50,755 bases of DNA from a virus. Taxonomy: Duplodnaviria; Heunggongvirae; Uroviricota; Caudoviricetes. The stretch covers positions 1-50,755 of the IMG/VR virus record IMGVR_UViG_3300032030_000012; one strand, 5' to 3'. Both the position numbers and the translations under genes were made by a program. This document shows positions 17,938 to 50,755 of this stretch, piece by piece. Below the pieces are notes generated by a model. That model saw only the letters and a program-made list of their open reading frames with translations. It was not told the DNA's origin and searched no databases. The stretch's first letter is position 1. Each line of letters opens with the position of its first letter.

Positions 17938-19482
17938 CTATCCATTAACTCTTAAATTATCTATTTTAGTAGGATTTCCTGATTGATCTCCTAACAAAGT
18001 TACTTTTATATTAGGTACTTGACCTTCTACTATAAATAAATTAGCAGGATGTTCTTCTAAATATTTTTTAATATTCTCATCTACAGTTACTCCTGATTGG
18101 TCTTCTGCTTCTTTAATACTTTCTATTTGAGAAGCTCCAATACCTATAGCAAGATCTCCAGTTCTTTGATCCCATATTAAATTATTATTTAGAAAATAAT
18201 TATCATTAACTTTAAATTTAACATCTTCTTCTATCTTATTAACAGGCTCATTATCATTTAATTTTTTATCTATAATTCCTTTAGCAAATTTTAAGAAATT
18301 ATAAAATTCATCTAATCCCATTTCATATTGAGCTCTTTCAACTAATTCTTTTAATTGGGTACTATAATTAATTTGACCTTCTTCTACTTTTTTAGATTCT
18401 TCTAATTCTACTCCATATTTTTCCATTTCTTCATCTGTCATCTCTAAATCATTCTTTAATACTCTTTTATAATCTTCTGGTTGTAAATGATCAAATAACC
18501 ATTGTAATCCTATTTCTACTATATCTTGAATTTTACCATCTGGAATATCTTGGTCACCTTCATAAATACTTTGATCTATATCCATCTCTTTAAATAAATT
18601 TTCTAAATCGCTTGTATGAATATATCTATCTATTATAGCTAATATTTCACCAGCCATAAATTTTTTACTATCTTCAAATGATTCTTGAATAGTACCTTTC
18701 AAATTTTTATTTAAAGTATTATATACTGTATCATTTGTATACCCTGAAAATAATCCTTCTAAATTATTTTCAACTACATCAGCAGCTTTATCATCTTCTG
18801 TTTCACCTTCAATATTTAATACTATATCAAAAGCATCTAAATGATCTTTAACATAACTAAATAAATCTACTACAGCATAATCTTCATCAGCTCTTATAAT
18901 TTTTGTACCTTTAGCTATAGTAGCTAAACATTTATCAAATGAATCATTACTATTTTCATCATAATCAAAATAAACTATCATATCAATAGTATTATCTCCG
19001 ATATCTAATCCATCTAATCCTTTTTGATGTCTATCTAAAATTAAATCTGCTAAAGTTTTTATTTCTTTATTTTCTTCCATTTTATGAACTCCTTCCTCTA
19101 ATTTTTTAATTTCTTTTAATTTAATAAAATTTTTGTTAGCTTCTTTACATTTCATTATCATCTCAGGTTTACTCATATCTTCTTTTGGAGTAAACTCAAA
19201 CTCATTATCTTTACCATCTTGGTCTGAATATATAATATTATATTTTTGATCTTTTTTATATATATCAAAATTCTCATCTAAGTCTTTTATTACTTCATAA
19301 TCAGAATATATAGAAGCTCTTGTTTTAGGAGGGGTATGTTTTGCTTTTTCTTTTTTCATAAATTCTTGAGCTTCTTTTTCTGTTTCAAATTTATTAGTGT
19401 ATATAAATTCTTTAGGTTTTCTATAATATCCTCTATCATTACCTTCACACCAATCAGCTACTTTACATTTAACTCTGAACAT
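17938..19482 (-). CDS. Acidic multi-module protein, putative head-internal polyprotein
   Basis: 514 aa; linkers LDEN, LEEG, IQES, LEESKKVEEG, IEED separate unrelated modules. Confidence 0.7.
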   Translation of the reverse strand: MFRVKCKVADWCEGNDRGYYRKPKEFIYTNKFETEKEAQEFMKKEKAKHTPPKTRASIYSDYEVIKDLDENFDIYKKDQKYNIIYSDQDGKDNEFEFTPKEDMSKPEMIMKCKEANKNFIKLKEIKKLEEGVHKMEENKEIKTLADLILDRHQKGLDGLDIGDNTIDMIVYFDYDENSNDSFDKCLATIAKGTKIIRADEDYAVVDLFSYVKDHLDAFDIVLNIEGETEDDKAADVVENNLEGLFSGYTNDTVYNTLNKNLKGTIQESFEDSKKFMAGEILAIIDRYIHTSDLENLFKEMDIDQSIYEGDQDIPDGKIQDIVEIGLQWLFDHLQPEDYKRVLKNDLEMTDEEMEKYGVELEESKKVEEGQINYSTQLKELVERAQYEMGLDEFYNFLKFAKGIIDKKLNDNEPVNKIEEDVKFKVNDNYFLNNNLIWDQRTGDLAIGIGASQIESIKEAEDQSGVTVDENIKKYLEEHPANLFIVEGQVPNIKVTLLGDQSGNPTKIDNLRVNG

Positions 19483-22024: not shown

Positions 22025-23266
22025 TTAGTATTTTAATTTTTGTCCTGGATATATTGTATAAGGAGATCTGATACCGTTTTTATCTGCTATTGATTTCCAA
22101 TTAACTCCTAATTTTGCACCTATTCCAGATAATGTATCTCCTGATTTAACTGTATATGTTCTAGATGAAGAGCTTCCTCCTCCTAATTTCTTATTTACAA
22201 TATCTTGTATAACACTGAAATTATATCCAGCTTCTTCTAATTTTCTTCTTCTATCGTCACCATTCCCCCATTTACCAGCTATAACTTCATCAGCTATTGT
22301 TTCATTTGATTTCTTTGGAGTAGATCCTCCTACTAATTCATTTACTTTATTCTGAATAGCATTATAATCATATCCAGCCTGAGTTAATCTATTTTTACGA
22401 TCATCACCATTTCCCCATTGCCCTGCAATTACTTCTCTGGCAATTTCATCAATAGACTTTTTAGCTGGTTGAGATCCACCTTTTAATATTTCATTTACTC
22501 TAGCTTGCACTGCATTATAATCATATCCTGCATTTATTAATCTATGCTTTCTATCATCACCATTTCCCCAGGCTCCATTTATAACTTCTCTTGCTACTTC
22601 ATCTATTGATTTAGTTGGAGCAGGTCTTGGATTAGTTCCGCCCTTAACTATAAAATCTTTATAACCATAATTCATATCTAATCTTCCTGAATATCCATTT
22701 AAATATCCATCAGATGTAAATTGCCATATACCACAACGAGAAGCATTTTCACCTTCAGAAGAAGTATTCATTCCTGTTTGTTTTCCTCCTCTTGTTGGCC
22801 AATGAGCTACCCATTTATCAAAAGCTGTTAATCCTGCAAGTTGATTATTAAACCAAGATGAACTAGCATATACCATTGCATAGTATCCTGCATTCTCGAA
22901 AGCTCTACATTCAATTGTACATATATCTCTTAATGTTTGATTTGAAGGCATACCATTTCTTTTTTTATAGCCATCTGCATCTTCCATATCAATTACTAAG
23001 AAGTTAGGTTTAACTGCATATGAATTAGCTAAATTAATAACATTTTGAGCTTCTTGAGCAGCTCTATCAGTATTTAAAGCATATGAATAAATATATAAAC
23101 CATATGGTTTTCCGTTCTGTATTGCTAAATTAACATTTCTATCAACTTTACTATCTTTACTAATACCTGCATGAGATCTAAATATGAAAAAATCTACTTG
23201 ATTTGACAAAGCTCCTATATTAATATCTCCTTGCCAAGCACTAATATCTGGTCCAATATATGCCAT
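22025..23266 (-). CDS. Endolysin: GH25 muramidase + 3x Cpl-7 (CW_7) + LysM
   Basis: PDISAWQG, IDME, WQFTS..LDMN; three SIDE.AREVI.G.WGNGDDRK..L..AGYDY repeats; YTVKSGDTLSGI...IYPGQKL. Confidence 0.93.
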   Translation of the reverse strand: MAYIGPDISAWQGDINIGALSNQVDFFIFRSHAGISKDSKVDRNVNLAIQNGKPYGLYIYSYALNTDRAAQEAQNVINLANSYAVKPNFLVIDMEDADGYKKRNGMPSNQTLRDICTIECRAFENAGYYAMVYASSSWFNNQLAGLTAFDKWVAHWPTRGGKQTGMNTSSEGENASRCGIWQFTSDGYLNGYSGRLDMNYGYKDFIVKGGTNPRPAPTKSIDEVAREVINGAWGNGDDRKHRLINAGYDYNAVQARVNEILKGGSQPAKKSIDEIAREVIAGQWGNGDDRKNRLTQAGYDYNAIQNKVNELVGGSTPKKSNETIADEVIAGKWGNGDDRRRKLEEAGYNFSVIQDIVNKKLGGGSSSSRTYTVKSGDTLSGIGAKLGVNWKSIADKNGIRSPYTIYPGQKLKY

Positions 23267-31824: not shown

Positions 31825-34239
31825 TTAACCGTTATATACTATTCTAACCTTTCCTTGATCATTCACAGTAGACATTACTACTCCAAATTTTTCAATTCTA
31901 TTATTAGTATAATCAACAGTTCCATCAGGAAGTGCTTTAACTATTTGACCAGGAGTTAAATAAGGATTATTTGTTTTAACCCAAATTTTACCTACCATAC
32001 CTACAATACATTTTTGATCTTCTTCTAAATCTTTTCCTCCAAGTAATACACCTTCTGTATTTGAACATATACCTACTATAGCATCAAGATCTGACATCAT
32101 TTCTACTTTATGAACTAATCCATCTTCTCTTATACATACTATATCTCCTGGCTCTATTATTTCTTCTGGTAATTTTTCAAATACTTCAGCATAGTCATTA
32201 TATACAGCATTATAAACTTTAGATCCTGTAATTGTTCCTGTTGTAGTCCAATTTCCAGTACCTGTTAATGTTCCATTAACTGTTGTATTCCCTAAAGATG
32301 TTGTTCCTGCATATAAATTCTTTTCACCTGAACTTCCTACATAGAAGTTACAGTTTGTTCTTAAATTTGTAGCGTTATTATCTTTAGTTATTGTTACATC
32401 TCCACCAGTTCCTCTAGAAAATGTTACAACACCATTTGAAGTTTTTAATCCATTACCTGTTATTAATCCAGTTGCTGTTATAGTACTATTAGTTGCTAAA
32501 GCTCCATCTAAATTTAATATTTTTTGATTATCAGTTTTGTATAAACTAACATCCATAGCACTATTATCATCTTTCCAATAAATAATTGGATTAACAGATG
32601 TGCTTGCGTTATATAATTCTAATTTACCACTATTATATAATTTAGAATATGATGTATTAGCAGTATTTCTTGTTAAATAATATCCAGCATCAGCTGTATT
32701 ATTTATTTCATTAATAGCTCCAGGTGTAAATATTGTTTTTATAGATGCATCAGCATTTGCTATTTGCCATTCACTATTTTTTAACCAAGTTTTCTCTTGT
32801 CCAAATGTTGTTGTAGATCCTAAATATAATGTAGTTGTAGCTCTAACATCATTTAAGAAATCTGATTTAGGACTTATTTTCATAAAGCTTACATTATCTT
32901 GTAATAATGATACTACTTGATTAGAATTATTATATTGCCATATAGCCTTTCCTACAGTGAATTTAGCTGTATTAGCATCTGTGAATGTAAAATTAAATGC
33001 TAAATTAGGAGCATTTGGATCTGTTATTTTAACATTATTATTATCTAAAGTTAATTTAGGTGAATTTGTATTTTCAGTAGATAATGATATTTCATTATCT
33101 CCTTCTATTGTAACTGGTCCTTCTGCATCAATACATATTCCACCATTATTGTGAATATGTAATTTATTATCAGTTTCTGATTCGTAAATTTCTCCTTTTC
33201 CTATACTCCATTTATAAGTATTACCTTCAACATCAATATTTATATCTCTATCAGAATTATCAATATAATAAATATTGCCAGTATCACCCCAGTTAGTTTT
33301 AGGATCTTGATTTATAAAATTAGTAATATATTCTATATCTTTATCATCTATAACACCATCATGATTTACATCAGATAATATTTTTTCTAAGTCTGTAGGA
33401 GTAGCAGTACCATCAACAAAAGTTTGGATTATTCTTAAATCTTCAGCATCAATAACTCCATCTCTATTAACATCTCCATAAAATTGTAATAGATTATTAT
33501 TTACTGTAGGATCTTTAATAGTTATATGAGAACCATTTTCATCCACATTCATAATAATTCCAGGATTACTATTTTCTCTATTATCAGCTATTGTAATAGG
33601 TCCATATACAATATCTCCTTCTTTAGAAAAATACCAATCAGGAATTTTATAAATATATTCTTGAAGATTTAATCTTCTTATATCTGGATGTTTTGGATCT
33701 AAAAATTTACATAGAATATCTTCTGCCCATATTCTTCCATATTTATCTTCGTCTTCTTCTAAATTAGAAAAATTAGTTCCATCCCATTCTACTGAACCTA
33801 AATATAATATATCTGGATCTGTTACAGGATCTGGTTTCTCATCAAAATATGTTAGATATACTCCTTTAAAAGTTCTTAAAGAACCATATACTAAATCACC
33901 TAAAACATTTCTAGAGCTATCTCTAGCTAGTTTGAATGCTAAATACCATTTTCCTATTCCATCTGGAGCTCCTATTGTAATAGAATTCTCCATAATAAGA
34001 TCCATACCATTAATTGAACATTGACCTTTTAATACTCTTATCAAAGGTTCTCCTGTAGATATATCACTTATTAAACTCAATTCAAAAGAAGGTTTAACTA
34101 TACAGAAGTTCTTACTTGATACTCTAGTTACAAATCTAGCCATATTAAATTCAAGATTCAATTTACCGTCATCTTGTTGGTTTGAACCAGGATAACATGT
34201 AATATCTTCTCCATTGTAATTTACTATTGGATGAGCCAT
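31825..34239 (-). CDS. Tail spike/fibre with dockerin-like domain and C-terminal autoproteolytic chaperone-like domain
   Basis: GDVNRDGVIDAED...SDVNHDGVIDDKD; C-terminal NDYAEVFE..PGDIV..VGICS..VGMVGKIWVK. Confidence 0.7.
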   Translation of the reverse strand: MAHPIVNYNGEDITCYPGSNQQDDGKLNLEFNMARFVTRVSSKNFCIVKPSFELSLISDISTGEPLIRVLKGQCSINGMDLIMENSITIGAPDGIGKWYLAFKLARDSSRNVLGDLVYGSLRTFKGVYLTYFDEKPDPVTDPDILYLGSVEWDGTNFSNLEEDEDKYGRIWAEDILCKFLDPKHPDIRRLNLQEYIYKIPDWYFSKEGDIVYGPITIADNRENSNPGIIMNVDENGSHITIKDPTVNNNLLQFYGDVNRDGVIDAEDLRIIQTFVDGTATPTDLEKILSDVNHDGVIDDKDIEYITNFINQDPKTNWGDTGNIYYIDNSDRDINIDVEGNTYKWSIGKGEIYESETDNKLHIHNNGGICIDAEGPVTIEGDNEISLSTENTNSPKLTLDNNNVKITDPNAPNLAFNFTFTDANTAKFTVGKAIWQYNNSNQVVSLLQDNVSFMKISPKSDFLNDVRATTTLYLGSTTTFGQEKTWLKNSEWQIANADASIKTIFTPGAINEINNTADAGYYLTRNTANTSYSKLYNSGKLELYNASTSVNPIIYWKDDNSAMDVSLYKTDNQKILNLDGALATNSTITATGLITGNGLKTSNGVVTFSRGTGGDVTITKDNNATNLRTNCNFYVGSSGEKNLYAGTTSLGNTTVNGTLTGTGNWTTTGTITGSKVYNAVYNDYAEVFEKLPEEIIEPGDIVCIREDGLVHKVEMMSDLDAIVGICSNTEGVLLGGKDLEEDQKCIVGMVGKIWVKTNNPYLTPGQIVKALPDGTVDYTNNRIEKFGVVMSTVNDQGKVRIVYNG

Positions 34240-39677: not shown

Positions 39678-39706
39678 ATTAGTAGGATATCACTTATCCT
39701 ACTAAT
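39678..39706 (-). terminator. Intrinsic terminator overlapping the promoter motif
   Basis: attagtaggata/tatcctactaat followed by a T-run on the minus strand. Confidence 0.75.
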
Positions 39707-39746: not shown

Positions 39747-42161
39747 TTAATCATTATCGTCTTTAAGCTTCTTTGAATTTCTATATTCAAAATATTCACT
39801 ACCTTCTTTATCTATTGTATCAATAGTATATTGTTTACCTCTAAACCATCTCAATTCAGAAGAAGGATTCATAATATCATCATATTGAACATAATATACA
39901 TCATTTGGATTTTCTATAGAAGCTTGTTTTGCTTTTTCTTCAGCTTCTTCATTAGACATTTCATACCAAGTATGTAATACATGACCATTATCAAATTCAT
40001 TATAATGAGATATTCTTTTTTGTTTTGTTCCTTCTGTTTTTATCTCTTTTGATTCTAATAACTCATTATATATAAATTCTCTTAATTCTTGATATTCTCC
40101 ATTTTCATCTCCAAATTGACCTTCTAATTCATCTAAAGCTGATAGAGCATCATCTGGATCTTTTTCATCTAATTCTAGGTTTCTACAAAATGTTTTATAT
40201 TGTTTATCCATTCTTTTTAAATATGCATCATGGTCTTTATCTAAATCACTAGATTCATTTAAATCAAATTTTCCTATATTAGCCACCCAATATAATATTC
40301 CTGCATCTAAACCATATTGTTCTGCTAAAGCTTTTGCTTTATCTCCTGATAAACCTGCTTGATTAACTGGAATTAATTCTTTATATTTATCTTGTTCTTC
40401 TTTTGATAAAGCATTAAATTCATCTTTGAAATTTCTTCCTTCTATTTCATCTATTTTAGCTTCTTCATCTGACCCAGGTTCAGTACCTAAATCTGTTTTT
40501 ATTTCATCAGATTCTTCTATTATTTCATATTTTTCTATATCAGGAACTAAAACTTCACTTCCTGCCTCATTTATATATGTAGGTATAAATGAATTCTCAT
40601 AAGTTCCATCATCTACTTTAGTTAATATATATCCATCAGAAGTTTTTATTCTATTTGGATATTTTTTACCTTCAGTTGCTAATTTTTTTACTTCTTCATC
40701 TTGAGCATTTACTTTAGCTATTTCAGCATTTATAAATTGAGCTATTTCATCTACAGTATCTACAAAAGTTCTAGCTCCAGCTGCTCCTACAGTAACAGAA
40801 AATTTTCCCTGATCATTATCAAAATATATAAATATTGATCTTTTATTATTATCTTTATCATTTAATTGTATATCATTAAAGAATTCATAAAGATCTTCAT
40901 TAAATACTGTATATTGATTTAATACATAATCTTCTAACTTATTTAATAATTCTTCTTTATTTAATTTCTTTGTCTCTACTTCTTTAGCTTCTTCTTTCTT
41001 ATTAGGATCAGGAATATAATCCTTTCTTCCTAATAATTTATCATATACTCTATATGCATCTTGAACTGTTACACTACCATGCATATAAGATACTCTTTCA
41101 GTATTATCTCTTTTCCAGTCTAAACCTTCTTCTTTTACTATTTGTTTAACTTTATTAGCTAACCATTTTTTAATTTGTAATTCATCTTTGCCTCTAAATC
41201 CTGAAGAATAATCATTAGTATCAAACTTAGCAACAACTTCACTACCTTCATAATCTACAGACATATGTTGCCAAAATCTATCCATTCCAGGACTATTTTC
41301 CCATATACCATCAGATAACTGACCTTCAACTGAACTTAGTACATCATAAGCATTTCTATCAGTTAATCCTGTTCTTATAGTAAGATTATTTACACCTTCA
41401 TTTAATTTTTTAGATTCATCTAAATCTTCTTCCTCATCTTCATCAAAATTGTCATCTTCATTATAATATTCATCTTCGTCTTCATCATCCCAATGTTCAT
41501 TAAATTCAAAAGGGCCTTCACAATCATATATACTACCTTGTTTTGATTTTTCCAAAGAATCTAAGAAATTTTCATTTAAACAATAATCAGCTAATTCTCT
41601 TAATAATACTTCATAGTCATCTTCTTCTGTTATATCATATATACGTTTTAATATTTGAGGAACATCTCCTGGTGCATATTTATATAACCAATTAGCATAA
41701 GATGATAAATCATTAGCCCATCCATTTAATCCTGAATTTACATTATCAAACACATCACCATCATTATACCATTTATAAATTAATTTATTTACAGCAGTAA
41801 CTATTTGAGATGCAAATGTTTCACCTTCTCCTTGATCTGGCATATATTTATTTACTAAGTCTTCAAATTTATCATAATAGCTCCAATCAACTCCTTCTGT
41901 TAAAGGTTTTGTTAAAGCTTCATTTTCAGGATCTTCAAGTAAGGCTTTTGCTGTAGCTTCTTCTAATCCTTCTTTCTTTATAGAAGACATATAATCTTCC
42001 ATAGCTTCTTTTACACCACAATCAGGACATATATATGTTTTGTTATCTCTTCTAGATAAAGCAGGATAACTTAAAAACCAATTACCACATTTAGGACATT
42101 TCTTAGGAGTTTCATTATCATATGGCATTGGTTCTTTTTCTAACTCTTCTTTACTCTTCAT
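39747..42161 (-). CDS. Large acidic multi-module protein, putative head-internal polyprotein
   Basis: Likely start MKSKEE at 42161 (AAGGAG RBS); N-terminal CxxC..CxxC finger, then ~7 modules joined by LEEA, LTEG, LDES/LNEG, ATEG, IEES, LNES, LLES/KTEG. Confidence 0.75.
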   Translation of the reverse strand: MKSKEELEKEPMPYDNETPKKCPKCGNWFLSYPALSRRDNKTYICPDCGVKEAMEDYMSSIKKEGLEEATAKALLEDPENEALTKPLTEGVDWSYYDKFEDLVNKYMPDQGEGETFASQIVTAVNKLIYKWYNDGDVFDNVNSGLNGWANDLSSYANWLYKYAPGDVPQILKRIYDITEEDDYEVLLRELADYCLNENFLDSLEKSKQGSIYDCEGPFEFNEHWDDEDEDEYYNEDDNFDEDEEEDLDESKKLNEGVNNLTIRTGLTDRNAYDVLSSVEGQLSDGIWENSPGMDRFWQHMSVDYEGSEVVAKFDTNDYSSGFRGKDELQIKKWLANKVKQIVKEEGLDWKRDNTERVSYMHGSVTVQDAYRVYDKLLGRKDYIPDPNKKEEAKEVETKKLNKEELLNKLEDYVLNQYTVFNEDLYEFFNDIQLNDKDNNKRSIFIYFDNDQGKFSVTVGAAGARTFVDTVDEIAQFINAEIAKVNAQDEEVKKLATEGKKYPNRIKTSDGYILTKVDDGTYENSFIPTYINEAGSEVLVPDIEKYEIIEESDEIKTDLGTEPGSDEEAKIDEIEGRNFKDEFNALSKEEQDKYKELIPVNQAGLSGDKAKALAEQYGLDAGILYWVANIGKFDLNESSDLDKDHDAYLKRMDKQYKTFCRNLELDEKDPDDALSALDELEGQFGDENGEYQELREFIYNELLESKEIKTEGTKQKRISHYNEFDNGHVLHTWYEMSNEEAEEKAKQASIENPNDVYYVQYDDIMNPSSELRWFRGKQYTIDTIDKEGSEYFEYRNSKKLKDDND

Positions 42162-42200
42162 AATATATTTCTCCTTCATTTATTAGATTTTATTTTTCTA

Positions 42201-42217
42201 TTCTATTATTATTTTAC
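42201..42217 (-). promoter_or_regulatory. Putative late promoter motif (copy 11)
   Basis: GTAAAATAATAATAGAA upstream of the polyprotein gene. Confidence 0.6.
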
Positions 42218-42800: not shown

Positions 42801-42989
42801 TTAATCACAATTACTTACTTCTTTTAATATCATAATTATTACTATGATTGATAAAGGTATCATTAACCAAAAATGATTTTCTATAAATTGTTCTATTATC
42901 CCTAATATATAGAAAAATCCTAATATTAGTAATGTTCCTATTATACCTCCTATTAAATTTTTCATTAGTTCCTTAACGATTTTTTCCAT
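42801..42989 (-). CDS. Small two-TM membrane protein
   Basis: 62 aa with two hydrophobic segments. Confidence 0.7.
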   Translation of the reverse strand: MEKIVKELMKNLIGGIIGTLLILGFFYILGIIEQFIENHFWLMIPLSIIVIIMILKEVSNCD

Positions 42990-43026
42990 AGTATTTTTCT
43001 TCCTTTCTACATACTTTCTTAAATAT

Positions 43027-43058
43027 ATTATACTATATATTTTAAAAGATGGAACGGG
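43027..43058 (-). promoter_or_regulatory. Second promoter class CCCGTT-N20-TATAAT (copy B)
   Basis: Intergenic, upstream of 42989. Confidence 0.65.
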
Positions 43059-43060
43059 GT

Positions 43061-43516
43061 TTATAAAATATTTTTTAAATCTTTCAACTCCTTGAAAACA
43101 AAGTCTTTACAAGTGATTTCATCTAATTTTTTATTTAAATGAGCAGTAAATTTAGCCATACATTCATTACATAAATCTTTACCTAATTCAAATTCATTTT
43201 GAACATACCAATCAGAATCAGGTCTACCTGCTCCGAATTCCCCTTCATAATAATAAATATATTGATTCCAGTCTCTATTATCATATTCTTTTCCACATAT
43301 ATCACATTTGCATACTATAAAAGTTTTCTCTTCTTCTATTTCATGCATACCTCTTTTATCATCTGATAATAAATCATTAAAAGCAGGATGTTTTATATTA
43401 TGAGATCCACATTTATTACATACAAGTCTTATATTCTCAGATCCACAGTCATTACAAAATTGAACTAATCTATATTGACCAGTTTTAACTTTCCTCGTTT
43501 CCTTCCTCAAAAACAT
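43061..43516 (-). CDS. Zinc-ribbon protein
   Basis: Four CxxC pairs. Confidence 0.7.
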   Translation of the reverse strand: MFLRKETRKVKTGQYRLVQFCNDCGSENIRLVCNKCGSHNIKHPAFNDLLSDDKRGMHEIEEEKTFIVCKCDICGKEYDNRDWNQYIYYYEGEFGAGRPDSDWYVQNEFELGKDLCNECMAKFTAHLNKKLDEITCKDFVFKELKDLKNIL

Positions 43517-43910
43517 TTTCTTCAGACTCCTTTTTTATAATATCTTCTAAAGTTTCATCAGGATATTTACTAAGTTCTTTATCAACATCATAATTAGTTA
43601 AATCTTTTTCTCTATAATCTTTAACTAATTTTCCAGTATCTATCAGTTTATTATCCTTTATTTTTAATACAGTTCTTTTTAAAGCATCTTTCATATGTTT
43701 CATAGTAACTTTAATATCATCATAATCTTGAAATCTCATATCTACAGGTTCTGAAGTCCATGCAACAGGATTATCCATTTCATCATAATGTACTTCATGT
43801 AAAGCAAAATGTTTAACAAAATATTCTTCATAATCTTTCTTTGAATACCAAGTTTCTTTATATTCAATAAATCTAGTATTCCAATATTTTCCTGTCCATT
43901 CTTTATTCAT
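43485..43910 (-). CDS. Hypothetical phage protein
   Basis: WNTR...ALHEVHYD...P.AWT..P motif typical of small phage proteins. Confidence 0.65.
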   Translation of the reverse strand: MNKEWTGKYWNTRFIEYKETWYSKKDYEEYFVKHFALHEVHYDEMDNPVAWTSEPVDMRFQDYDDIKVTMKHMKDALKRTVLKIKDNKLIDTGKLVKDYREKDLTNYDVDKELSKYPDETLEDIIKKESEENVFEEGNEES

Positions 43911-44103
43911 AATCTTCTTCCTTTACTTTTCTTTTTTCATATTTATCATTATATATTCCAGAATCTCCATAATATTTTCTTCTTTTGTGTTGATAACAAT
44001 CTGGACATAATGCTTCTCCGTCAAGCCAAATTCTATCTCCTTCTCTTACATCATTTTTACACCAAGGACATTTTACTATTTCATCTAACCAACTATCACT
44101 CAT
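43903..44103 (-). CDS. Small zinc-finger protein
   Basis: CPWC...CPDC. Confidence 0.65.
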   Translation of the reverse strand: MSDSWLDEIVKCPWCKNDVREGDRIWLDGEALCPDCYQHKRRKYYGDSGIYNDKYEKRKVKEEDYE

Positions 44104-44351
44104 TTTCTATCTCCTAACCATAGATCTTCTGAATACAATTCATTATTATCTACTAACTTATTTAAATTTGGATTTTCTTTTTTAGCTATTATTAATGCTT
44201 CTTCTCTATTAACAAATCTTAAATCATCTGTTATAAATCCTTGTTCAGCATATTTAAAATCATTTGGATATAATATTATTAATTCGCTATGTGAATTTCT
44301 ACTAGCATATACTTTACCTTCTTTAGTTCTTATTGCTGGAGCTATTATCAT
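44100..44351 (-). CDS. Conserved hypothetical phage protein
   Basis: EQGF.T...RFV.R.EA..IA...ELYSEDLW. Confidence 0.7.
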   Translation of the reverse strand: MIIAPAIRTKEGKVYASRNSHSELIILYPNDFKYAEQGFITDDLRFVNREEALIIAKKENPNLNKLVDNNELYSEDLWLGDRK

Positions 44352-44353
44352 TT

Positions 44354-44647
44354 TTATTCATCCTCCAAATTACATATATAATATTGAATAGATTCATTAT
44401 AACTTATTGTATGAGGATATCTTTTAACAATATAATCTAAAAAATCATCAGTACCTGTATAATTAAATAATCCAAAATCATCATTATACTTTTCACAATA
44501 TAATTTATTATGATCTTTGCGAATTCTATCCATACAGTCCCAAACATTTGCATTATTTTTCAGATATTTTTTAATATCTATAGAATCTAAATACTCATAT
44601 TCATCATGTTCTTTCTTTTGCCATAACTCTTTCTCTTCTCTAGTCAT
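44354..44647 (-). CDS. Hypothetical protein
   Basis: Likely start MTREE at 44647 (AAAGGAG RBS). Confidence 0.6.
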   Translation of the reverse strand: MTREEKELWQKKEHDEYEYLDSIDIKKYLKNNANVWDCMDRIRKDHNKLYCEKYNDDFGLFNYTGTDDFLDYIVKRYPHTISYNESIQYYICNLEDE

Positions 44648-44649
44648 AT

Positions 44650-45006
44650 TCATTTCTCCTTTATATAATGACCGCATCTCCAGTCATCCCAACTATATTT
44701 ATCAGGATATCCTTGTTTCTTTTCCTTTGCAGTTCTAAAATTATCTTCTTTCCACTCTTCTAATTCTTTAGGTATATATTCCCAAACTTTAGTTATAATA
44801 TTTCCATTAGAAGATTTATAATCAAATTTTTCTATACCATGAGTATATAGAAATTCTTCTAATCTCCATTTAGATGCAAATTTAAAATACATTACATCTT
44901 TTGGAATATCATTAAAATAAGCTAAATATGATTTCCCATTATGTTCACCATATGCCTTTAATTTAGTATTATCATTAATAATTAAACAATCATTAAACCA
45001 AGCCAT
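44650..45006 (-). CDS. Hypothetical protein
   Basis: 118 aa, coupled to its neighbours. Confidence 0.65.
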   Translation of the reverse strand: MAWFNDCLIINDNTKLKAYGEHNGKSYLAYFNDIPKDVMYFKFASKWRLEEFLYTHGIEKFDYKSSNGNIITKVWEYIPKELEEWKEDNFRTAKEKKQGYPDKYSWDDWRCGHYIKEK

Positions 45007-45556
45007 ATCTGTTCTCCTTTATTTCTTCATATCCAAATCTATCTATCATTTCTTTTAAAGTTATAGGATACCAATCCCATAAATCACATCCACAATTATA
45101 TCTATTAGGTTGATCTATTTTATTAGGATTATTATGTAAGTGGCCATGAATATGTATAGATCCATAATGTTGTCTATCCCAATCTTCGATAGGATAATGA
45201 GATAGAATAACACATTTACCTTGATCTTCAATTCTTTTATAATAAGTTATTTCTTCCCACAATCTTTCCTTTAAATCAATACTATTTATCCATCCTTCAT
45301 CATGATTTCCAATTATTAAATGTTTTTTACCATTCAAAGATTTAACAATATCATTTATATTATCTATAGAAGCTTTACTACCTTTCCAAGCAAAATCTCC
45401 TAAAATATAAACAGTATCATTAATTCCTATTCTTTCATTCCATCGATCTATTAAGCCTTGTGTCATTTCTTCAATAGTTTTCCAAGGTCTATTTTCATAT
45501 TTTATAATATTACTATGTCCAAAGTGTAAATCAGATGTGTAAAATATCTTACTCAT
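44993..45556 (-). CDS. Calcineurin-like metallophosphoesterase
   Basis: SDLHFGH, LGD, GNHD, SHYP and HGHLH motifs. Confidence 0.9.
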   Translation of the reverse strand: MSKIFYTSDLHFGHSNIIKYENRPWKTIEEMTQGLIDRWNERIGINDTVYILGDFAWKGSKASIDNINDIVKSLNGKKHLIIGNHDEGWINSIDLKERLWEEITYYKRIEDQGKCVILSHYPIEDWDRQHYGSIHIHGHLHNNPNKIDQPNRYNCGCDLWDWYPITLKEMIDRFGYEEIKENRYGLV

Positions 45557-45863
45557 CTAAATTTACCTCCTCATTATTTATATATAACTTTCCACTATAA
45601 TAATGAATACTGCTATTTTTTATAATATCTTTACAGTTCTGTATTATAGCTTCTTTTATCTCTTGTTCATTAGATGTATTAGCAAGTATTGTCATTAGTT
45701 TTCCTTCTGATAATAAACTACCATTAACACCTTCTATTCTAAAATTTACTTCATGTTCATCCTCATATACTAATGTAAAATCAGATAAATAAGTACTACC
45801 ATAATCACAAGTAGGACATCCTTGTATATGATGAGAATCATATAATACATCTATTATTTTCAT
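45549..45863 (-). CDS. Hypothetical protein
   Basis: GCPTCDYGS motif. Confidence 0.65.
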   Translation of the reverse strand: MKIIDVLYDSHHIQGCPTCDYGSTYLSDFTLVYEDEHEVNFRIEGVNGSLLSEGKLMTILANTSNEQEIKEAIIQNCKDIIKNSSIHYYSGKLYINNEEVNLDE

Positions 45864-46447
45864 TATCTTTTACTCCTTTTATTATTCCATATAAATCCAA
45901 AATCAGTTCTTTTAATTTTACACATATCACCATTTTCTCTATGAAATACAATACCTTCTATATAATGAGTATTTAAATAATCTTTTATTCCTTCAAAAGT
46001 TCTAGGAACATTATCTAATATCTTATTACCATGTTTAAAGAAAGTATCAGATTCTAAATTATAAGGATTTGTTTGAAAATGAGGTCCACATAATTCATAT
46101 GTTCCATCTTCTAAATACTCTTTGTCTAATCTATTCCAAGCTTCTATAAACCATTTATCATCAGATTTATCTTCTTTAACTTCTACCCAATGAGGCCAAT
46201 GAGTTGTTATTGGATCTGGCTCAGGCTGACAAGGTATGGCTCCTTCAGGAGGCTGTTTACCTTGTTTTGCATCATATCTTTTATATAATTTGTTATTTTG
46301 TATCAAACAACAAGTACCATCATATTTTTCTGTAGCTAAACCTTCTCCGTTTATTACCCATTCACAACCAGGAGTTATTTGAGATGTTATAGCTTTAACA
46401 TTATGATTTTCAAACTCCCTTATAAATAAACTAGGTATCTTTTTCAT
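45863..46447 (-). CDS. RNA ligase-like nucleotidyltransferase (DUF5565/RLIG1-like)
   Basis: Motif I ATEKYDGTCC (KxDG), TYELCGP, EGIVF, KIKR. Confidence 0.7.
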   Translation of the reverse strand: MKKIPSLFIREFENHNVKAITSQITPGCEWVINGEGLATEKYDGTCCLIQNNKLYKRYDAKQGKQPPEGAIPCQPEPDPITTHWPHWVEVKEDKSDDKWFIEAWNRLDKEYLEDGTYELCGPHFQTNPYNLESDTFFKHGNKILDNVPRTFEGIKDYLNTHYIEGIVFHRENGDMCKIKRTDFGFIWNNKRSKR

Positions 46448-46449
46448 TG

Positions 46450-46749
46450 TTATTCCTTCCTAGGATCTTGAACTACCTTTAAACCAATACCTCTACTATA
46501 TTTATATAACATGAATAAAAATAAAGATTTAAACAATTCAAAATCTATATTATTTCTTTTACAATATCTTTCTACATTTTCATATGTAGGACATTCTATA
46601 AATACATTAGCTTGCAAATTTTCTAAATATACTATATCAATAGATAATTCTTCTCCATTTAATGTAAAATAAACTTTATTACTCCCTCTATCAGTTCTAT
46701 TACCAGGTCTTTCTTTTCCTATAATTTTAATATCTAAATTTAGATTCAT
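46450..46749 (-). CDS. Hypothetical protein
   Basis: Likely start MNLNL at 46749 (AAGGAG RBS). Confidence 0.6.
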   Translation of the reverse strand: MNLNLDIKIIGKERPGNRTDRGSNKVYFTLNGEELSIDIVYLENLQANVFIECPTYENVERYCKRNNIDFELFKSLFLFMLYKYSRGIGLKVVQDPRKE

Positions 46750-46833
46750 TTTTAATCTCCTTTTCTCAAGAAGATACATAATTATTCAGTTTTTACCTAA
46801 AACTCTGTTAAAACTTAAATATGCACGAAATAA

Positions 46834-47550
46834 CTATATATTTTCCAGATATTCTATCTCTTTATTATGCTTTTTAGCATAATCTATGTATAATTGAGTA
46901 GTTTTTCCAATGTATTTGTCTTTATTATAAACGAATAAGATATCAGAAATTAGTATTTCGTCTTCTATTAACTGATTTAATAATACTTGCTCTTCTTCAA
47001 ATAATTCAGGATTCTTTAATGATGAAGAAAAAACCATATTTCCTTGTAAACATAAATCTGTATATTTCTGGTTTATATCATCATTAAATTTTTTAGCTCC
47101 AACAAGTGTTATTATTTTTCTAGGTTTGTGTTTCAAATAGTTTACCAAATCAGTATCAAAAATGTTTAAGTATTTTTTATAAATCATATCACTATCATAT
47201 TCATCAATATGTACACGTTCTTCTTCAAGTTGATCTATATAATCTTTAGGAGTATATTCACCTGTTCTAAACATATCTAAAGAAACAAATAAATCAGCCA
47301 TAAAGTCAGCTATATTTTCTTTATCTATAAAATTTTCTTCACTAAAATATAAAGCATATACTACTGCTGTTAAAATATTTTGTAAACTATGATTAAGTTC
47401 TTCTTCAAAAGCTATGGCATAGTCTCTTCTAAAATTTGTGTCAATTTGATTTTCAAAAGATCTAATCCAGTCTACTAATTTTGATTTATCTTTATCTCTA
47501 GCTGCTTTTTCTAATCTTCTTAATTCATTTCTATTAATCAAACTTCCCAT
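46834..47550 (-). CDS. Hypothetical protein; C-terminal DUF4406/nucleoside deoxyribosyltransferase-like fold possible
   Basis: IITLVG..KF...SDILFVYNKDKYIGKTT....YAKKHNKEIEYLE. Confidence 0.55.
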   Translation of the reverse strand: MGSLINRNELRRLEKAARDKDKSKLVDWIRSFENQIDTNFRRDYAIAFEEELNHSLQNILTAVVYALYFSEENFIDKENIADFMADLFVSLDMFRTGEYTPKDYIDQLEEERVHIDEYDSDMIYKKYLNIFDTDLVNYLKHKPRKIITLVGAKKFNDDINQKYTDLCLQGNMVFSSSLKNPELFEEEQVLLNQLIEDEILISDILFVYNKDKYIGKTTQLYIDYAKKHNKEIEYLENI

Positions 47551-47571
47551 TATATACTCCTATTCTTGTTA

Positions 47572-48243
47572 TCAATCTTCCATTATAGTTATTTCAGCAA
47601 AATCTTCAGGATCCATTTCTGTATTATATTCTATATTTCCGAATATCTCTGGCATGTCTTCTTTAAACTTTAAAAGTAGTGGTATTAATAATTGATTTAT
47701 TGCAGGATGAGCATGTTTTGTACATCTTAAACTTAATACATGTTTCCATTCTCTTATATTACAAGTCATATTCACCTCTGCTGCTGTACTATGAGGTAAT
47801 AACATTCTTAATTGATCTGGAGTACAACCAATCTTACTCATCTCTAAATAAGATTCTTCAATATCCTCCATACAATTTTTCCAGAATTCATATTCAGCTG
47901 TATCTTCTTTAATATTTACTGGTTTAATAAATTTAATTTGATTATCAAATTTATCTCTACCATAATTACAATATCTTGTACTTTCAATAGAGAAAGAAGC
48001 TATTCTATGTCTTGTTAAGTCTTTATATACTCCTATATCACAAAGCATTCTTACAGATATTTTTTCATGTTCTAAAATACTTTCATGTCCTCTATTAATA
48101 CAATTTTTTAAAAGATTACTATAACTTGTATCTGTTATAGTATTCTCTGATCTATAACAAGTTCTGCAAGCTCTTTCTAATCTTTTCATAATCTTTTTTC
48201 CATCATAGTTTTCAACTTCTATTTTAGGATTAACTACAATCAT
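47572..48243 (-). CDS. thyX: FAD-dependent thymidylate synthase
   Basis: GHESILEH, RHRIASFSIESTRY (RHR-x7-S), R.LLP, N.REW.H...LR..AHP; start MIVVNP at 48243 with AAAGGAG RBS. Confidence 0.92.
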   Translation of the reverse strand: MIVVNPKIEVENYDGKKIMKRLERACRTCYRSENTITDTSYSNLLKNCINRGHESILEHEKISVRMLCDIGVYKDLTRHRIASFSIESTRYCNYGRDKFDNQIKFIKPVNIKEDTAEYEFWKNCMEDIEESYLEMSKIGCTPDQLRMLLPHSTAAEVNMTCNIREWKHVLSLRCTKHAHPAINQLLIPLLLKFKEDMPEIFGNIEYNTEMDPEDFAEITIMED

Positions 48244-48267
48244 CTCTGATTCTCCTTTACATTCAAT

Positions 48268-48299
48268 ATTATAACACATATTTTAAAAACTGGAACGAG
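48268..48299 (-). promoter_or_regulatory. Second promoter class CTCGTT-N20-TATAAT (copy C)
   Basis: Between a terminator and the thyX RBS. Confidence 0.65.
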
Positions 48300-48383: not shown

Positions 48384-50342
48384 TTAATCTAAAGGACCAT
48401 AGCTGTTTACCATATCAGCTGATCTTTTTAATATAGCTTTTGCTAAATCTCTGTTTTTATCTATTAACTCAAATTGTTCTTGAGTTATATCCCCTCTATC
48501 TCTCCAATAGTTTGTGCTATCCCATTTAGGAAGTATTTCATAATACTCATCTGCTTCTTCAACGGTATGACAACTTTCAGGAGTTCCTGTTACAAAATAT
48601 AATTTATTTGTAGTAGTTATTCCTACTTTTTCAAGTTCATCTTCAAATGCTTTTATTTTATCATCTTCTGATTCTTCTAATTTTGATTCTTCTTTATTAG
48701 ATAATTCAGCAGCTTTTAATATATTATCTATTGTATCTGATGCAGTAGCTATATCACTTTTATAAGTTCCTAAAAATTCTGATTCTCCACCTTCTATAGT
48801 ATCCCATAAATCTTGTAAAGCTTCTGATGCTGTTCTTAAAGCTTTTAAATCATTATAATCTGCTTTTATTTCTGCTTCATCCAATTTAGTCTCTATCATT
48901 CTTGTTTGTTGAGCTCTTTTTTGTAGAGCTAAGAATTCATTATTAGTTATTTCTTCATTAAAAGATGCCTCATTTAGAAAATCATCAAATTCTTTATCTG
49001 TAGCATCCATTGCTATTAATTCATTTAATTGTTCTAATAAATCTAAATAACTTTGAGTATGTTCTTCTTTATCTTCATTTATTATTTCTAGTATATCTTT
49101 AATATCCTGTTCTTTATTTTCTTCTAATGACTCTGTTCTTTTTGAAGTTATCTTTTTAACTATTTCTTTAATTTGTTGAAGATACCAACTTACTCTTTCA
49201 TACTGTTCTTTAGAATCATTATCTAAATTATATCTTCTAGTTATTTGAGAATCTTTAGATTTTTTATCCCAATTTTTATATTCAATTTCATCTTTAACTC
49301 TTTGTAAATATGATTTTAAATCTTTTAAATCCCATTCAGAAGCATTTAATAAATCTTCAGGTCCTAAAACTTTAAGTTCGTTTTTAGCTTCTTCAAATTC
49401 TCTTTTAGCTTTTTCATAATACTTATCTACATATGCTTTATAATCATCATCAGATACTTCTTTAACATCCTTTAAAGCTTCTTCATATTCAGCTTTAATT
49501 CTTTTACAGATTTCAGCTACATCAGCCAAATCTACTTGACTATCACTAACTCCATTATATTTATCACAATCTTTATATGAAGGTAATTTACTGTATTCAT
49601 TATAAGTTAATCCTTCTAAATAATCAACTCTTATAGATAAATAAACCTGACCATCATCTTTTAAATATGAAATAGGAACTCCATTACATATATAACCTCT
49701 AAAATGATTTCCATCATCTGAAAAATCTTCTTCAGGAAATCTTTCTATACCATATTTTTTAAAATTTAATTTATCTTCTTCTAATATATCTACATCTTCA
49801 TTTAATGCTTTTGTTTCCTCTAATTTATTATCAGCTGATTTAACTTCCTCAGATGCTTCTACTTTTTCTTCTTCATCTTCTTTCTCTTCTTTTGCATCTT
49901 CAAAAGTTTCAGGAGCAAATTCTGTTCCTTCTTCCTCTTCTTCTGTTTCTTGATTTATTCCATTTTCTTCAGCTACAGTTTCATCAGTTTCTACTCTACC
50001 TACCATTACAAAAGCTTCCGGTACTTGAGTACAAACAGGACATATAGCTCCTGGTTCTAATATTTCATCTGTAACAAAAGTAGCTCCACAAATAGGACAT
50101 GTTTGAAGATATTGACCTTCCCATTCTTCATCGAAAGGAATTTCACCTTCTGGAGTATCTTCAACAATTTCTTGAGCTCTTTCAATAACTTCTTCATATT
50201 CTTCACTATTTACTTTAGGATCTGTAACTACTAATATGTTATCTACTATTCCTTCTACATCATTTACATCTTTACTATCATCTAGTTCATCGTAAAGAGC
50301 TTTTAATGTAGCTTCTTGTAAATTCATTTTTTCTTTTTCCAT
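48384..50342 (-). CDS. Acidic multi-module protein, putative head-internal polyprotein
   Basis: Likely start MEKEK at 50342 (AAAGGAG RBS); LQEATLKAL, CPICG..CPVC finger, linkers LEET/LNED/LEED, RTES/LEEN, LDEA, LEES. Confidence 0.75.
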   Translation of the reverse strand: MEKEKMNLQEATLKALYDELDDSKDVNDVEGIVDNILVVTDPKVNSEEYEEVIERAQEIVEDTPEGEIPFDEEWEGQYLQTCPICGATFVTDEILEPGAICPVCTQVPEAFVMVGRVETDETVAEENGINQETEEEEEGTEFAPETFEDAKEEKEDEEEKVEASEEVKSADNKLEETKALNEDVDILEEDKLNFKKYGIERFPEEDFSDDGNHFRGYICNGVPISYLKDDGQVYLSIRVDYLEGLTYNEYSKLPSYKDCDKYNGVSDSQVDLADVAEICKRIKAEYEEALKDVKEVSDDDYKAYVDKYYEKAKREFEEAKNELKVLGPEDLLNASEWDLKDLKSYLQRVKDEIEYKNWDKKSKDSQITRRYNLDNDSKEQYERVSWYLQQIKEIVKKITSKRTESLEENKEQDIKDILEIINEDKEEHTQSYLDLLEQLNELIAMDATDKEFDDFLNEASFNEEITNNEFLALQKRAQQTRMIETKLDEAEIKADYNDLKALRTASEALQDLWDTIEGGESEFLGTYKSDIATASDTIDNILKAAELSNKEESKLEESEDDKIKAFEDELEKVGITTTNKLYFVTGTPESCHTVEEADEYYEILPKWDSTNYWRDRGDITQEQFELIDKNRDLAKAILKRSADMVNSYGPLD

Positions 50343-50361
50343 TTTAAAACTCCTTTCTAAA

Positions 50362-50755
50362 TTATATTCCAGCAATTATATCATTAATAGATGTTATTGT
50401 TTTAACTAAGTCTCCATCTATTTGAACTTGACCTGATATAAAAGCTTTTAGAGGTTCTGATGAACTTCTTATAGTTATATTAATTTGACCTCCTTGAGGT
50501 ACTGCTATAGTTGATTGACTTTCTCCATTATCAAATGATACTTGTACTTCCATACCTTCATCTGATAATTCATTAAATAATTGAGATGTTCTTAAAGTTA
50601 TTTGTCCATCTTCTGAATCTGCATCAAAATCTGGAGAACTTAATTTATCACCAATAGTATTTAAACTTTTTGTATTTTCTTCTTTTAATCTATTTTTAAT
50701 AATTAAAGATTCAGTTAGATTATTAACTTCTTTATATCTTTTTTCTTTTTCATCA
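50362..50755 (-). CDS. 3' part of a larger protein running off the window
   Basis: Frame is open upstream of 50553 to the edge: ...DEKEKRYKEVNNLTESLIIKNRLKEENTK...DEGMEVQV. Confidence 0.7.
   Translation of the reverse strand, partial: DEKEKRYKEVNNLTESLIIKNRLKEENTKSLNTIGDKLSSPDFDADSEDGQITLRTSQLFNELSDEGMEVQVSFDNGESQSTIAVPQGGQINITIRSSSEPLKAFISGQVQIDGDLVKTITSINDIIAGI

Follow-up and report, generated by a model that had tools for sequence, protein, structure and literature searches.

The gene at positions 39747-42161, on the minus strand of a 50,755-bp stretch of viral DNA (hereafter the window, corresponding to the first 50,755 bp of the 178,755-bp IMG/VR record IMGVR_UViG_3300032030_000012), encodes a protein of 804 amino acids (aa) which, on balance, is probably a cargo polyprotein that is packaged in the head, where a prohead protease cuts its linkers. 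According to the mechanism that we propose, the protein would enter the prohead core during assembly, its entry perhaps directed by a leader-like helix (residues 72-83), after which a serine protease of the gp21 type (Peptidase_S77) would cut behind the glutamate of each linker motif. The modules would thereby be freed as separate internal head proteins and would leave the head with the DNA at infection, most likely to act in anti-defence or host take-over.

The longest frame covers 39747-42179 and would give 810 aa (P0001); its residue numbers are used throughout and exceed those of the real protein by 6. The ATG at 42161 is the preferred start, because the Shine-Dalgarno sequence AAGGAG stands 9 nt upstream of it and an identical database copy (P0002, 804 residues) starts there.

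39747..42161, minus strand: coding sequence of the polyvalent protein or polyprotein candidate, 804 aa
42171..42176, minus strand: Shine-Dalgarno sequence AAGGAG, read from the sequence, 9 nt before the ATG at 42161 and supporting the 804-aa start

Modular architecture of the protein

Module borders were set by the ends of homologue alignments (240 database relatives) together with the predicted local distance difference test (pLDDT) values of an AlphaFold2 model. The alignment ends cluster near residues 90-97, 228, 262, 400, 504, 641, 712 and 785, and the confident AlphaFold2 blocks comprise residues 100-225, 265-390, 448-500, 582-636, 645-710 and 741-765, while the segments with pLDDT below 50 include 67-97, 228-263, 394-447, 496-510, 540-581, 637-648 and 710-740. 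Alignments and model together show about eight apparently unrelated modules (A to H), with linkers predicted to be disordered between them. A chain of some eight dissimilar modules had been described in an earlier note on this DNA, and this description holds; the CxxC finger and the junction strings that it listed are likewise all present, the latter being KKEG/LEEA (residues 68-75), LTEG (93-96), LDESKKLNEG (253-262), ATEG (501-504), IIEES (553-557), LNES (639-642) and LLESKEIKTEG (707-717). Modules and joints are arranged as follows.

41982..42161, minus strand: module A, zinc-ribbon of the form CxxC...CxxC, residues 7-66 with the finger at 28-54; matches phrog_2945 at 6e-14 (a 68-position profile) and, weakly, Pfam zinc-ribbons
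41892..41981, minus strand: linker 1, residues 67-96, with KKEG, a leader-like helix LEEATAKAL and then LTEG; pLDDT below 50
41496..41891, minus strand: module B, predicted helical domain, residues 97-228; pLDDT 80-92
41394..41495, minus strand: acidic tail of module B and tandem cassette LDESKKLNEG, residues 229-262; pLDDT about 31
40986..41393, minus strand: module C, predicted alpha/beta domain, residues 263-398; pLDDT about 80-85
40680..40985, minus strand: module D with its N-terminal linker, residues 399-500; seen only in polyvalent relatives
40668..40679, minus strand: junction ATEG, residues 501-504; 14 alignment ends of close relatives at 501-510, pLDDT below 50 over 496-510
40524..40667, minus strand: module E, small beta-rich segment of low confidence, residues 505-552; strands predicted at low pLDDT
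40437..40523, minus strand: linker with IIEES and EIEG, residues 553-581; pLDDT below 50 over 540-581
40266..40436, minus strand: module F, predicted helical, residues 582-638; 16 homologues, several in LPD11-bearing proteins
40254..40265, minus strand: junction LNES, residues 639-642; alignment starts and ends cluster at 631-650, pLDDT below 50 over 637-648
40062..40253, minus strand: module G, predicted helical, residues 643-706; 23 homologues, all polyvalent relatives, with varied upstream partners
40029..40061, minus strand: tandem cassette LLESKEIKTEG, residues 707-717; kept in relatives ahead of unrelated downstream modules
39750..40028, minus strand: module H, residues 718-810; 88 homologues

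The architecture is firmly established as modular and shuffled, and its modules as evolutionarily mobile. Each relative has part of the set only, covering between 8% and 87% of the query, and the modules come in differing orders, the order around module D being different in P0008 and P0004 and module A lying internally in P0080, and the breakpoints of this reshuffling fall at linkers. The earlier remark that the modules resemble small stand-alone phage proteins is borne out for four of them, since A, B, C and H are also found alone or N-terminal in other proteins, module H for instance being N-terminal in ArdA-bearing and in rubrerythrin/ferritin-bearing ones. The most widespread is module B, with 146 homologues among the fetched matches; at 74 viral loci it mostly forms stand-alone proteins of 130-180 aa, and in 666 representative clusters it occurs at any position in proteins of 93-1482 aa. 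Among the fetched proteins, 85 homologues of module C occur in other architectures, short proteins included, and module E is present only in P0002, the database copy of the same protein. As a separate observation, an acidic, D/E-rich tail containing W or Y nearly always follows module B, stand-alone forms of which often end in an aromatic residue; such a tail recalls the acidic C-termini that serve other proteins as DNA mimics or as binding sites for partners.

Breakpoints at the linkers between close relatives, and a module order that varies (F before D in P0008), are also what would be expected under the main rival explanation, in which the polyvalent protein is never cut and works or is delivered whole, its linkers being charged spacers that also supply micro-homology for module-shuffling recombination. 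We consider this rather unlikely.

A portable motif in the linkers

Shuffling of the whole protein gives 4.7 expected occurrences of [LIV]xE[SGAD] against the 10 found (p=0.018), and when linkers and folded parts are shuffled separately the linkers contain 9 against 2.13 expected (p=2e-4) and the folded parts 1 against 2.3. As the separate shuffle retains the high glutamate content of the linkers and still yields a fourfold enrichment, glutamate content alone fails to explain the motif, and the earlier suggestion of protease-like sites concentrated at the joints between domains is strengthened in this respect.

An unbiased scan was also made, by counting for each four-residue word (4-mer) the unrelated flanking contexts in which it occurs among relatives of at least 300 aa. 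LNES (22 contexts against 4.0 expected), SLKE, KLNE, LKES, NESK, ESKE, ESKK and KTES lead this ranking, and acidic low-complexity words such as DEED are at expectation. A raw 4-mer enrichment had been discarded in favour of this context-diversity version, being dominated by module homology. The junctions preceding module B were compared in 49 non-redundant contexts that exclude the close relatives: glutamate occupies position -2 in 43 of them, L, I, M or V position -4 in 46, and S, G or N position -1 in 44, the portable linker motif being [LIMV]-x-E-[SGN]. In the broader module B family glutamate is found at -2 in 24 of 54 fused forms and other lineages have basic linkers; with the motif present in about half of the fused forms, it is therefore clade-specific.

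Two copies of the motif often form a tandem cassette, L-x-E-S-K-x-hydrophobic-x-x-E-[GSNA], which occurs twice in the studied protein, in three other proteins of the genome, and frequently in polyvalent-like proteins of relatives. In relatives L[ND]ES-KEV precedes module D, and EIEG or ELQG stands directly before module F. A protein of the related phage genome G004 that occupies the same relative position (P0052) shares only module B with the studied protein (60% identity over 141 aa), and its cassettes are one residue different from those described here; judging by this pair of sequences, the cassette is apparently independent of the modules that it joins. That the linker motif is both portable and enriched can be regarded as firmly established.

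An uncut protein with spacer linkers would leave unexplained why a near-invariant glutamate is kept in a fixed register beside the module. A codon comparison of nine cassettes leaves room for recombination through micro-homology, codon usage being so extremely biased that conservation at the peptide level and at the DNA level were not separated; the serine codons of the cassettes nevertheless differ (TCT, TCA and AGT), which argues against recent copying of DNA.

Prohead proteases of related phages

Two related genomes, G001 (213,708 bp, with terminal repeats and 100% complete) and G004, have portal proteins 56-57% identical to that of this phage, and both encode a Peptidase_S77 domain (the family of T4 gp21) as the first ~175 residues of a ~500-aa protein with a coiled-coil, scaffold-like tail. 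This protease-scaffold protein also matches the phrog_207 head maturation protease (4e-36). The gene order in G004 consists of homologues of the genes at 48384, 52624, 46834 and 42230, followed by an 817-aa polyvalent gene, the protease-scaffold gene, the major head protein gene and then homologues of the genes at the far end of the contig studied here, so that the protease gene directly follows the positional counterpart of the gene 39747-42161.

The scaffold tails of the two proteases contain 9 and 12 copies of [LIVMF]xE[SGN] against 2.6 expected (p=8e-4 and p<2e-4, respectively) and their protease domains contain none; among the 253 ORFs (open reading frames) of G001 the protease-scaffold protein ranks second for the motif, the first being an acidic repeat protein encoded beside the sheath gene. 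It is thus firmly established that the motif is common to the linkers and to the protease-scaffold tails, and that in relatives the protease is present and adjacent. In the capsid proteins of the relatives, a conserved YTQ-x-SNV is closely preceded by L-F-E-G or Y-K-E-G, a candidate site for propeptide removal. As an aside, the major head protein of G001 appears to be split (205510-207250) into a 75-aa N-terminal ORF and a 390-aa ORF lying ~340 nt apart, which could be due to an intron, a frameshift or an assembly error.

Enrichment of the same motif in the tails of prohead proteases is a further feature for which spacer linkers offer no explanation. It could nonetheless be imagined that the prohead protease acts on a protein that is no cargo but serves as an assembly or core filler like T4 gp67 and gp68, with its fragments expelled or degraded before DNA packaging and playing no role in the next host. 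T4 gp21 cuts after glutamate and digests core proteins into several peptides that mostly leave the head (PMC9026906), and the most motif-rich protein of G001, the acidic repeat protein, is not an obvious effector. A filler is however difficult to reconcile with modules that are well folded and conserved, that many phages lacking an S77 protease encode as separate genes with no leader, and that relatives fuse to ArdA, LPD11 and LPD18, domains tied to phage-host conflict, and we therefore consider a filler role very unlikely.

A survey of 45 viral records with module B found Peptidase_S77 in 6, of which 4 have module B either fused or equipped with a leader ending in the motif; in S77-negative records at least 90% complete, module B is almost always leaderless.

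Leaders and other motif-bearing proteins

Leaderless stand-alone module B proteins begin with M-[S/A/G]-V-D-W, which without its methionine corresponds to the N-terminus that cutting after glutamate would be predicted to expose in the fused forms. A second group of B modules, stand-alone or N-terminal, bears short leaders (7-10 residues), among them MKILKES, MKILTEN and MRFKTLTES, whose layout matches that of the capsid-targeting sequence removed by gp21 in T4 (PMC9026906); short leaders ending in the motif are also found on long polyvalent proteins, e.g. P0249 (1482 aa). Spacer linkers in an uncut protein would again fail to account for stand-alone proteins that begin with the motif as a short leader and have no upstream module to be spaced or recombined.

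A longer leader, [LI]-x-[DE]-[AE]-T-hydrophobic-x-x-[LI], has 5 copies in the genome where 0.48 would be expected. Four of the five copies are N-terminal, in proteins of 400, 663, 83 and 188 aa, two of which are encoded beside the capsid gene. The strict pattern is absent from G001, where the ortholog of the acidic 400-aa protein has a variant. By analogy this shared leader resembles a capsid-targeting sequence, and it may have a targeting role, for which it is a candidate. Two further genes of the window bear the leader or the cassette.

48384..50375, minus strand: 663-aa protein in a late operon, with the same leader near its N-terminus (MN-LQEATLKAL)
17938..19482, minus strand: 514-aa protein with the cassette LEESKKVEEG at residue 360

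A virion connection is disputed by another rival explanation, namely that the product is a late cytoplasmic protein, e.g. a multi-inhibitor acting in the producing cell, the motif being read by another protease or by none. The gene adjoins tail and fibre genes here, not head genes; its counterpart in G004, however, abuts the head protease and capsid genes, the shared leader is also borne by proteins encoded beside the capsid gene, and searches of the protein itself revealed no protease domain, all of which leads us to give this explanation little credence.

Several other loci with these elements were observed. The gene 52624-55575 of the record, outside the window, encodes a second polyvalent protein, a 983-aa paralogue, which starts with MFKMDFLNEG and has three cassettes, with an LPD11 domain (4e-27) right after one of them. 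A very acidic 400-aa protein encoded just upstream of the tail sheath gene (160102-161304 of the record) has the N-terminal leader, three cassettes and a cysteine cluster; in G001 no protein is more enriched in the motif than its 572-aa ortholog (14 copies against 2.65 expected), which contains three basic-peptide repeats, each shortly after a cassette. In the window, the segment 17100-21880 is a late operon of acidic proteins that includes the 514-aa cassette protein and a 281-aa protein with the likely start MKLEES; both are among the most motif-enriched proteins of the genome, and the operon may be a further cargo locus.

Comparison with known systems

The closest known category is that of the polyvalent proteins, polypeptides of phages or conjugative elements with 2-15 unrelated domains each, for which Iyer et al. 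2017 predicted packaging, delivery alongside the DNA and processing by peptidases (PMC5512222). Assemblin-like peptidases were described there at the C-termini of some polyvalent proteins, which were likened to the polyproteins of RNA viruses, an embedded processing peptidase being typical but not universal (PMC5512222). The studied protein is similar to them in its many unrelated domains, its domain shuffling and its late or virion gene context, and also in that packaging, delivery and division into separate units are predicted for it. Relatives that share its modules carry LPD11, LPD18, ArdA, rubrerythrin/ferritin or BspA-type repeats, and modules B, F and H specifically share polypeptides with LPD11, LPD18 and ArdA; this co-occurrence and the LPD11 domain of the 983-aa paralogue suggest that it belongs to the polyvalent-protein network (PMC5512222). 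It differs in having neither an embedded peptidase nor a Pfam LPD domain, in that most of its modules are uncharacterised families, and in that its processing would take place in trans, by a separate prohead protease at a defined linker motif. No such motif is mentioned in the passages retrieved from that paper (PMC5512222). In G004 the assemblin-type protease is likewise a separate gene, downstream of the polyvalent gene.

In T4, capsid-targeting sequences are propeptides of 10-19 residues common to unrelated internal proteins and removed by gp21 (PMC9026906). The system of IPI, IPII, IPIII and Alt resembles the one proposed here in its gp21-type protease (found in the relatives), in sites (candidate ones here) that end in glutamate with a hydrophobic residue two positions before, in short N-terminal leaders on unrelated proteins and, as predicted for the present case, in head proteins ejected with the DNA. 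T4 cargo, however, is encoded by separate genes with one N-terminal propeptide each, whereas the studied protein has up to eight modules with a candidate site at nearly every junction, its leader is internal and unrelated in sequence to those of T4, and it is known from its sequence alone. In T4, aspartate in place of the glutamate at the cut prevents processing but leaves targeting intact.

In phiKZ and SPN3US, giant phages that are also large myoviruses, diverged gp21 homologues process numerous proteins of the head interior after x-x-Glu, and long propeptides are themselves cut at several sites (PMC7411985, PMC10052503); in SPN3US the gp21-type protease cuts at AXE, with S or G next in the sites documented, e.g. 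ATE|S and AQE|G (PMC7411985). In these phages one mature fragment is kept per protein and the rest is propeptide, the release of several independently folded modules not being described (PMC7411985, PMC10052503), and no sequence similarity was found between the studied protein and the ejection or inner-body proteins of phiKZ and SPN3US.

The general idea is anticipated by Iyer et al. 2017 and by the literature on T4 and the giant phages. What we did not find described in the literature searched is a defined linker code ending in glutamate between nearly all modules of a polyvalent protein, nor the occurrence of such a code both in leaders of the targeting type and in the scaffold that accompanies a separate protease of the gp21 type.

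Searches for module function

In Pfam no module other than A has a match, and no LPD or peptidase domain was found in the protein; PHROGs likewise returned no peptidase. For ten further relatives and paralogues the zinc-ribbon was the sole Pfam domain. Foldseek gave nothing at E<=0.001 against PDB and a single kind of match against BFVD, an uncharacterised module B homologue, while PDB sequences searched with a module B profile gave no match and ESM Atlas no usable one. The best Z of a wide VIA-align search (6.1) lies within the stated noise of that tool, and its weak rows (PsiB, T7 Gp1.2, AcrIIA11 and T4 Dmd) were not relied on. The region had no megablast match among the phage records, and tblastn recovered only the zinc-ribbon; no related loci were found using the whole protein as query, but the module B alignment did find them. 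The one pointer to effector functions is thus the company of LPD11, LPD18 and ArdA in relatives, which may suggest such a role.

Transcription and genome setting

The late-type motif that had been noticed ahead of the gene, GTAAAATAWTAWTRR, occurs in 10 copies in the window against 0.06 expected, and genome-wide it is found ahead of sheath-region, tail, fibre and lysin genes. One copy stands just upstream of the studied gene and a terminator follows it.

42203..42217, minus strand: late-type promoter motif, variant GTAAAATAATAATAG
39678..39706, minus strand: intrinsic terminator, a hairpin followed by a T-run, downstream of the gene

With its own late-type promoter and a closing terminator, the gene is therefore a single-gene late transcription unit, and its control by a late promoter is firmly established. 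Two more promoter-like classes were observed besides this motif (in the window at 42801-48299 and genome-wide), one an extended -10 of the form TGTTATAAT ahead of replication genes, the other a CGTTCC-type box with TATAAT ~20 nt later, which precedes clusters of small genes and the thymidylate synthase gene. The studied gene is located at the switch from a cluster of the CGTTCC-box type to late units.

The record is linear, estimated to be 87% complete, and belongs to a myovirus, described as a large gut-type phage. In the window the GC content is ~26%, all 48 of the 48 ORFs of at least 80 aa lie on the minus strand, and the genes include an endolysin (22025-23266), fibre and tail genes and thymidylate synthase. 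The tail sheath (158496-160079) and portal (134322-136187) genes lie outside it, as do those annotated as tail lysin, DNA polymerase, NAD-dependent ligase and a GroEL-like chaperonin. A tail-spike-like protein of the window, also of 804 aa (31825-34239), combines a dockerin type I domain (6.6e-9) with a Peptidase_G2 intramolecular-chaperone cleavage domain (6.6e-9), which hints at a cellulosome-bearing Clostridia host.

Evaluation of the cargo polyprotein interpretation

A number of points weigh against a cargo polyprotein. Incorporation into the prohead, cutting, ejection and an effector role are steps that we infer, and neither folds nor families pointed to a function for any of the modules. 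The motif is missing at the C-D junction of the protein, and none precedes module C in a 420-aa family. The leader-like helix is the fifth copy of the longer leader and is internal (residue 72, right after the zinc-ribbon), T4 targeting sequences being N-terminal. Some characterised polyvalent proteins are delivered uncut, e.g. the N4 virion RNA polymerase and ArdC (PMC5512222), which also favours the uncut alternative. In the phyletic survey one S77-positive record has a leaderless module B (G019), one S77-negative record, 86% complete, has a fused form with motif-like junctions (G023), and the S77-positive records are interrelated, leaving few independent events behind the association.

Finally, the 178,755-bp record itself gave no match to prohead protease or capsid families (PF03420, PF04586, PF07068, PF05065, phrog_207 and the G004 protease as queries), because the contig ends inside the capsid gene, beside the position that the protease has in relatives. 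Its final 159 bases encode the C-terminal 52 residues of the major head protein, 79% identical to the 467-aa major head protein of G004 (phrog_138 match, 5e-19), and from the gene order of G004 this phage's own protease gene is to be expected immediately past the end of the contig. The gp21-like protease that the earlier note had envisaged thus exists in the relatives G001 and G004 and was not found in this 87%-complete record.

The further proposal of that note, a ready-made effector set packaged, cut apart and injected, has fared in a similarly mixed way: the late-type promoter, the modules, the enriched motif, the protease and scaffold tails of the relatives and the leader are in its favour, while the failure to assign a function to any module tells against it and the idea is, given PMC5512222, not wholly new.

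Implications for phage biology

More tentatively, and as a proposition that is quite possible while still short of probable, a clade of large low-GC myoviruses may use a cargo code that can be read from sequence, consisting of a leader and of [LIMV]-x-E-[SGN] cassettes recognised by a gp21-type protease, by which shuffled small anti-host modules would be loaded into the head as polyproteins and cut apart there. If the linkers are real prohead-protease sites, the targeting and internal-protein system of T4 would be joined with the polyvalent proteins, which were predicted computationally. A simple sequence rule would then become available for finding the head-packaged, injected proteins of uncultured phages, whose injected sets would be predictable from sequence. 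Injected head proteins are a prime place in which to look for new anti-defence factors, and module B alone accounts for the 666 representative clusters mentioned above. Such a system would also suggest a natural way of packing more than one foreign protein into a phage head and, for the phages themselves, would mean that new cargo could be added by linker-mediated recombination and that their arsenals evolve by module swaps at standard joints.

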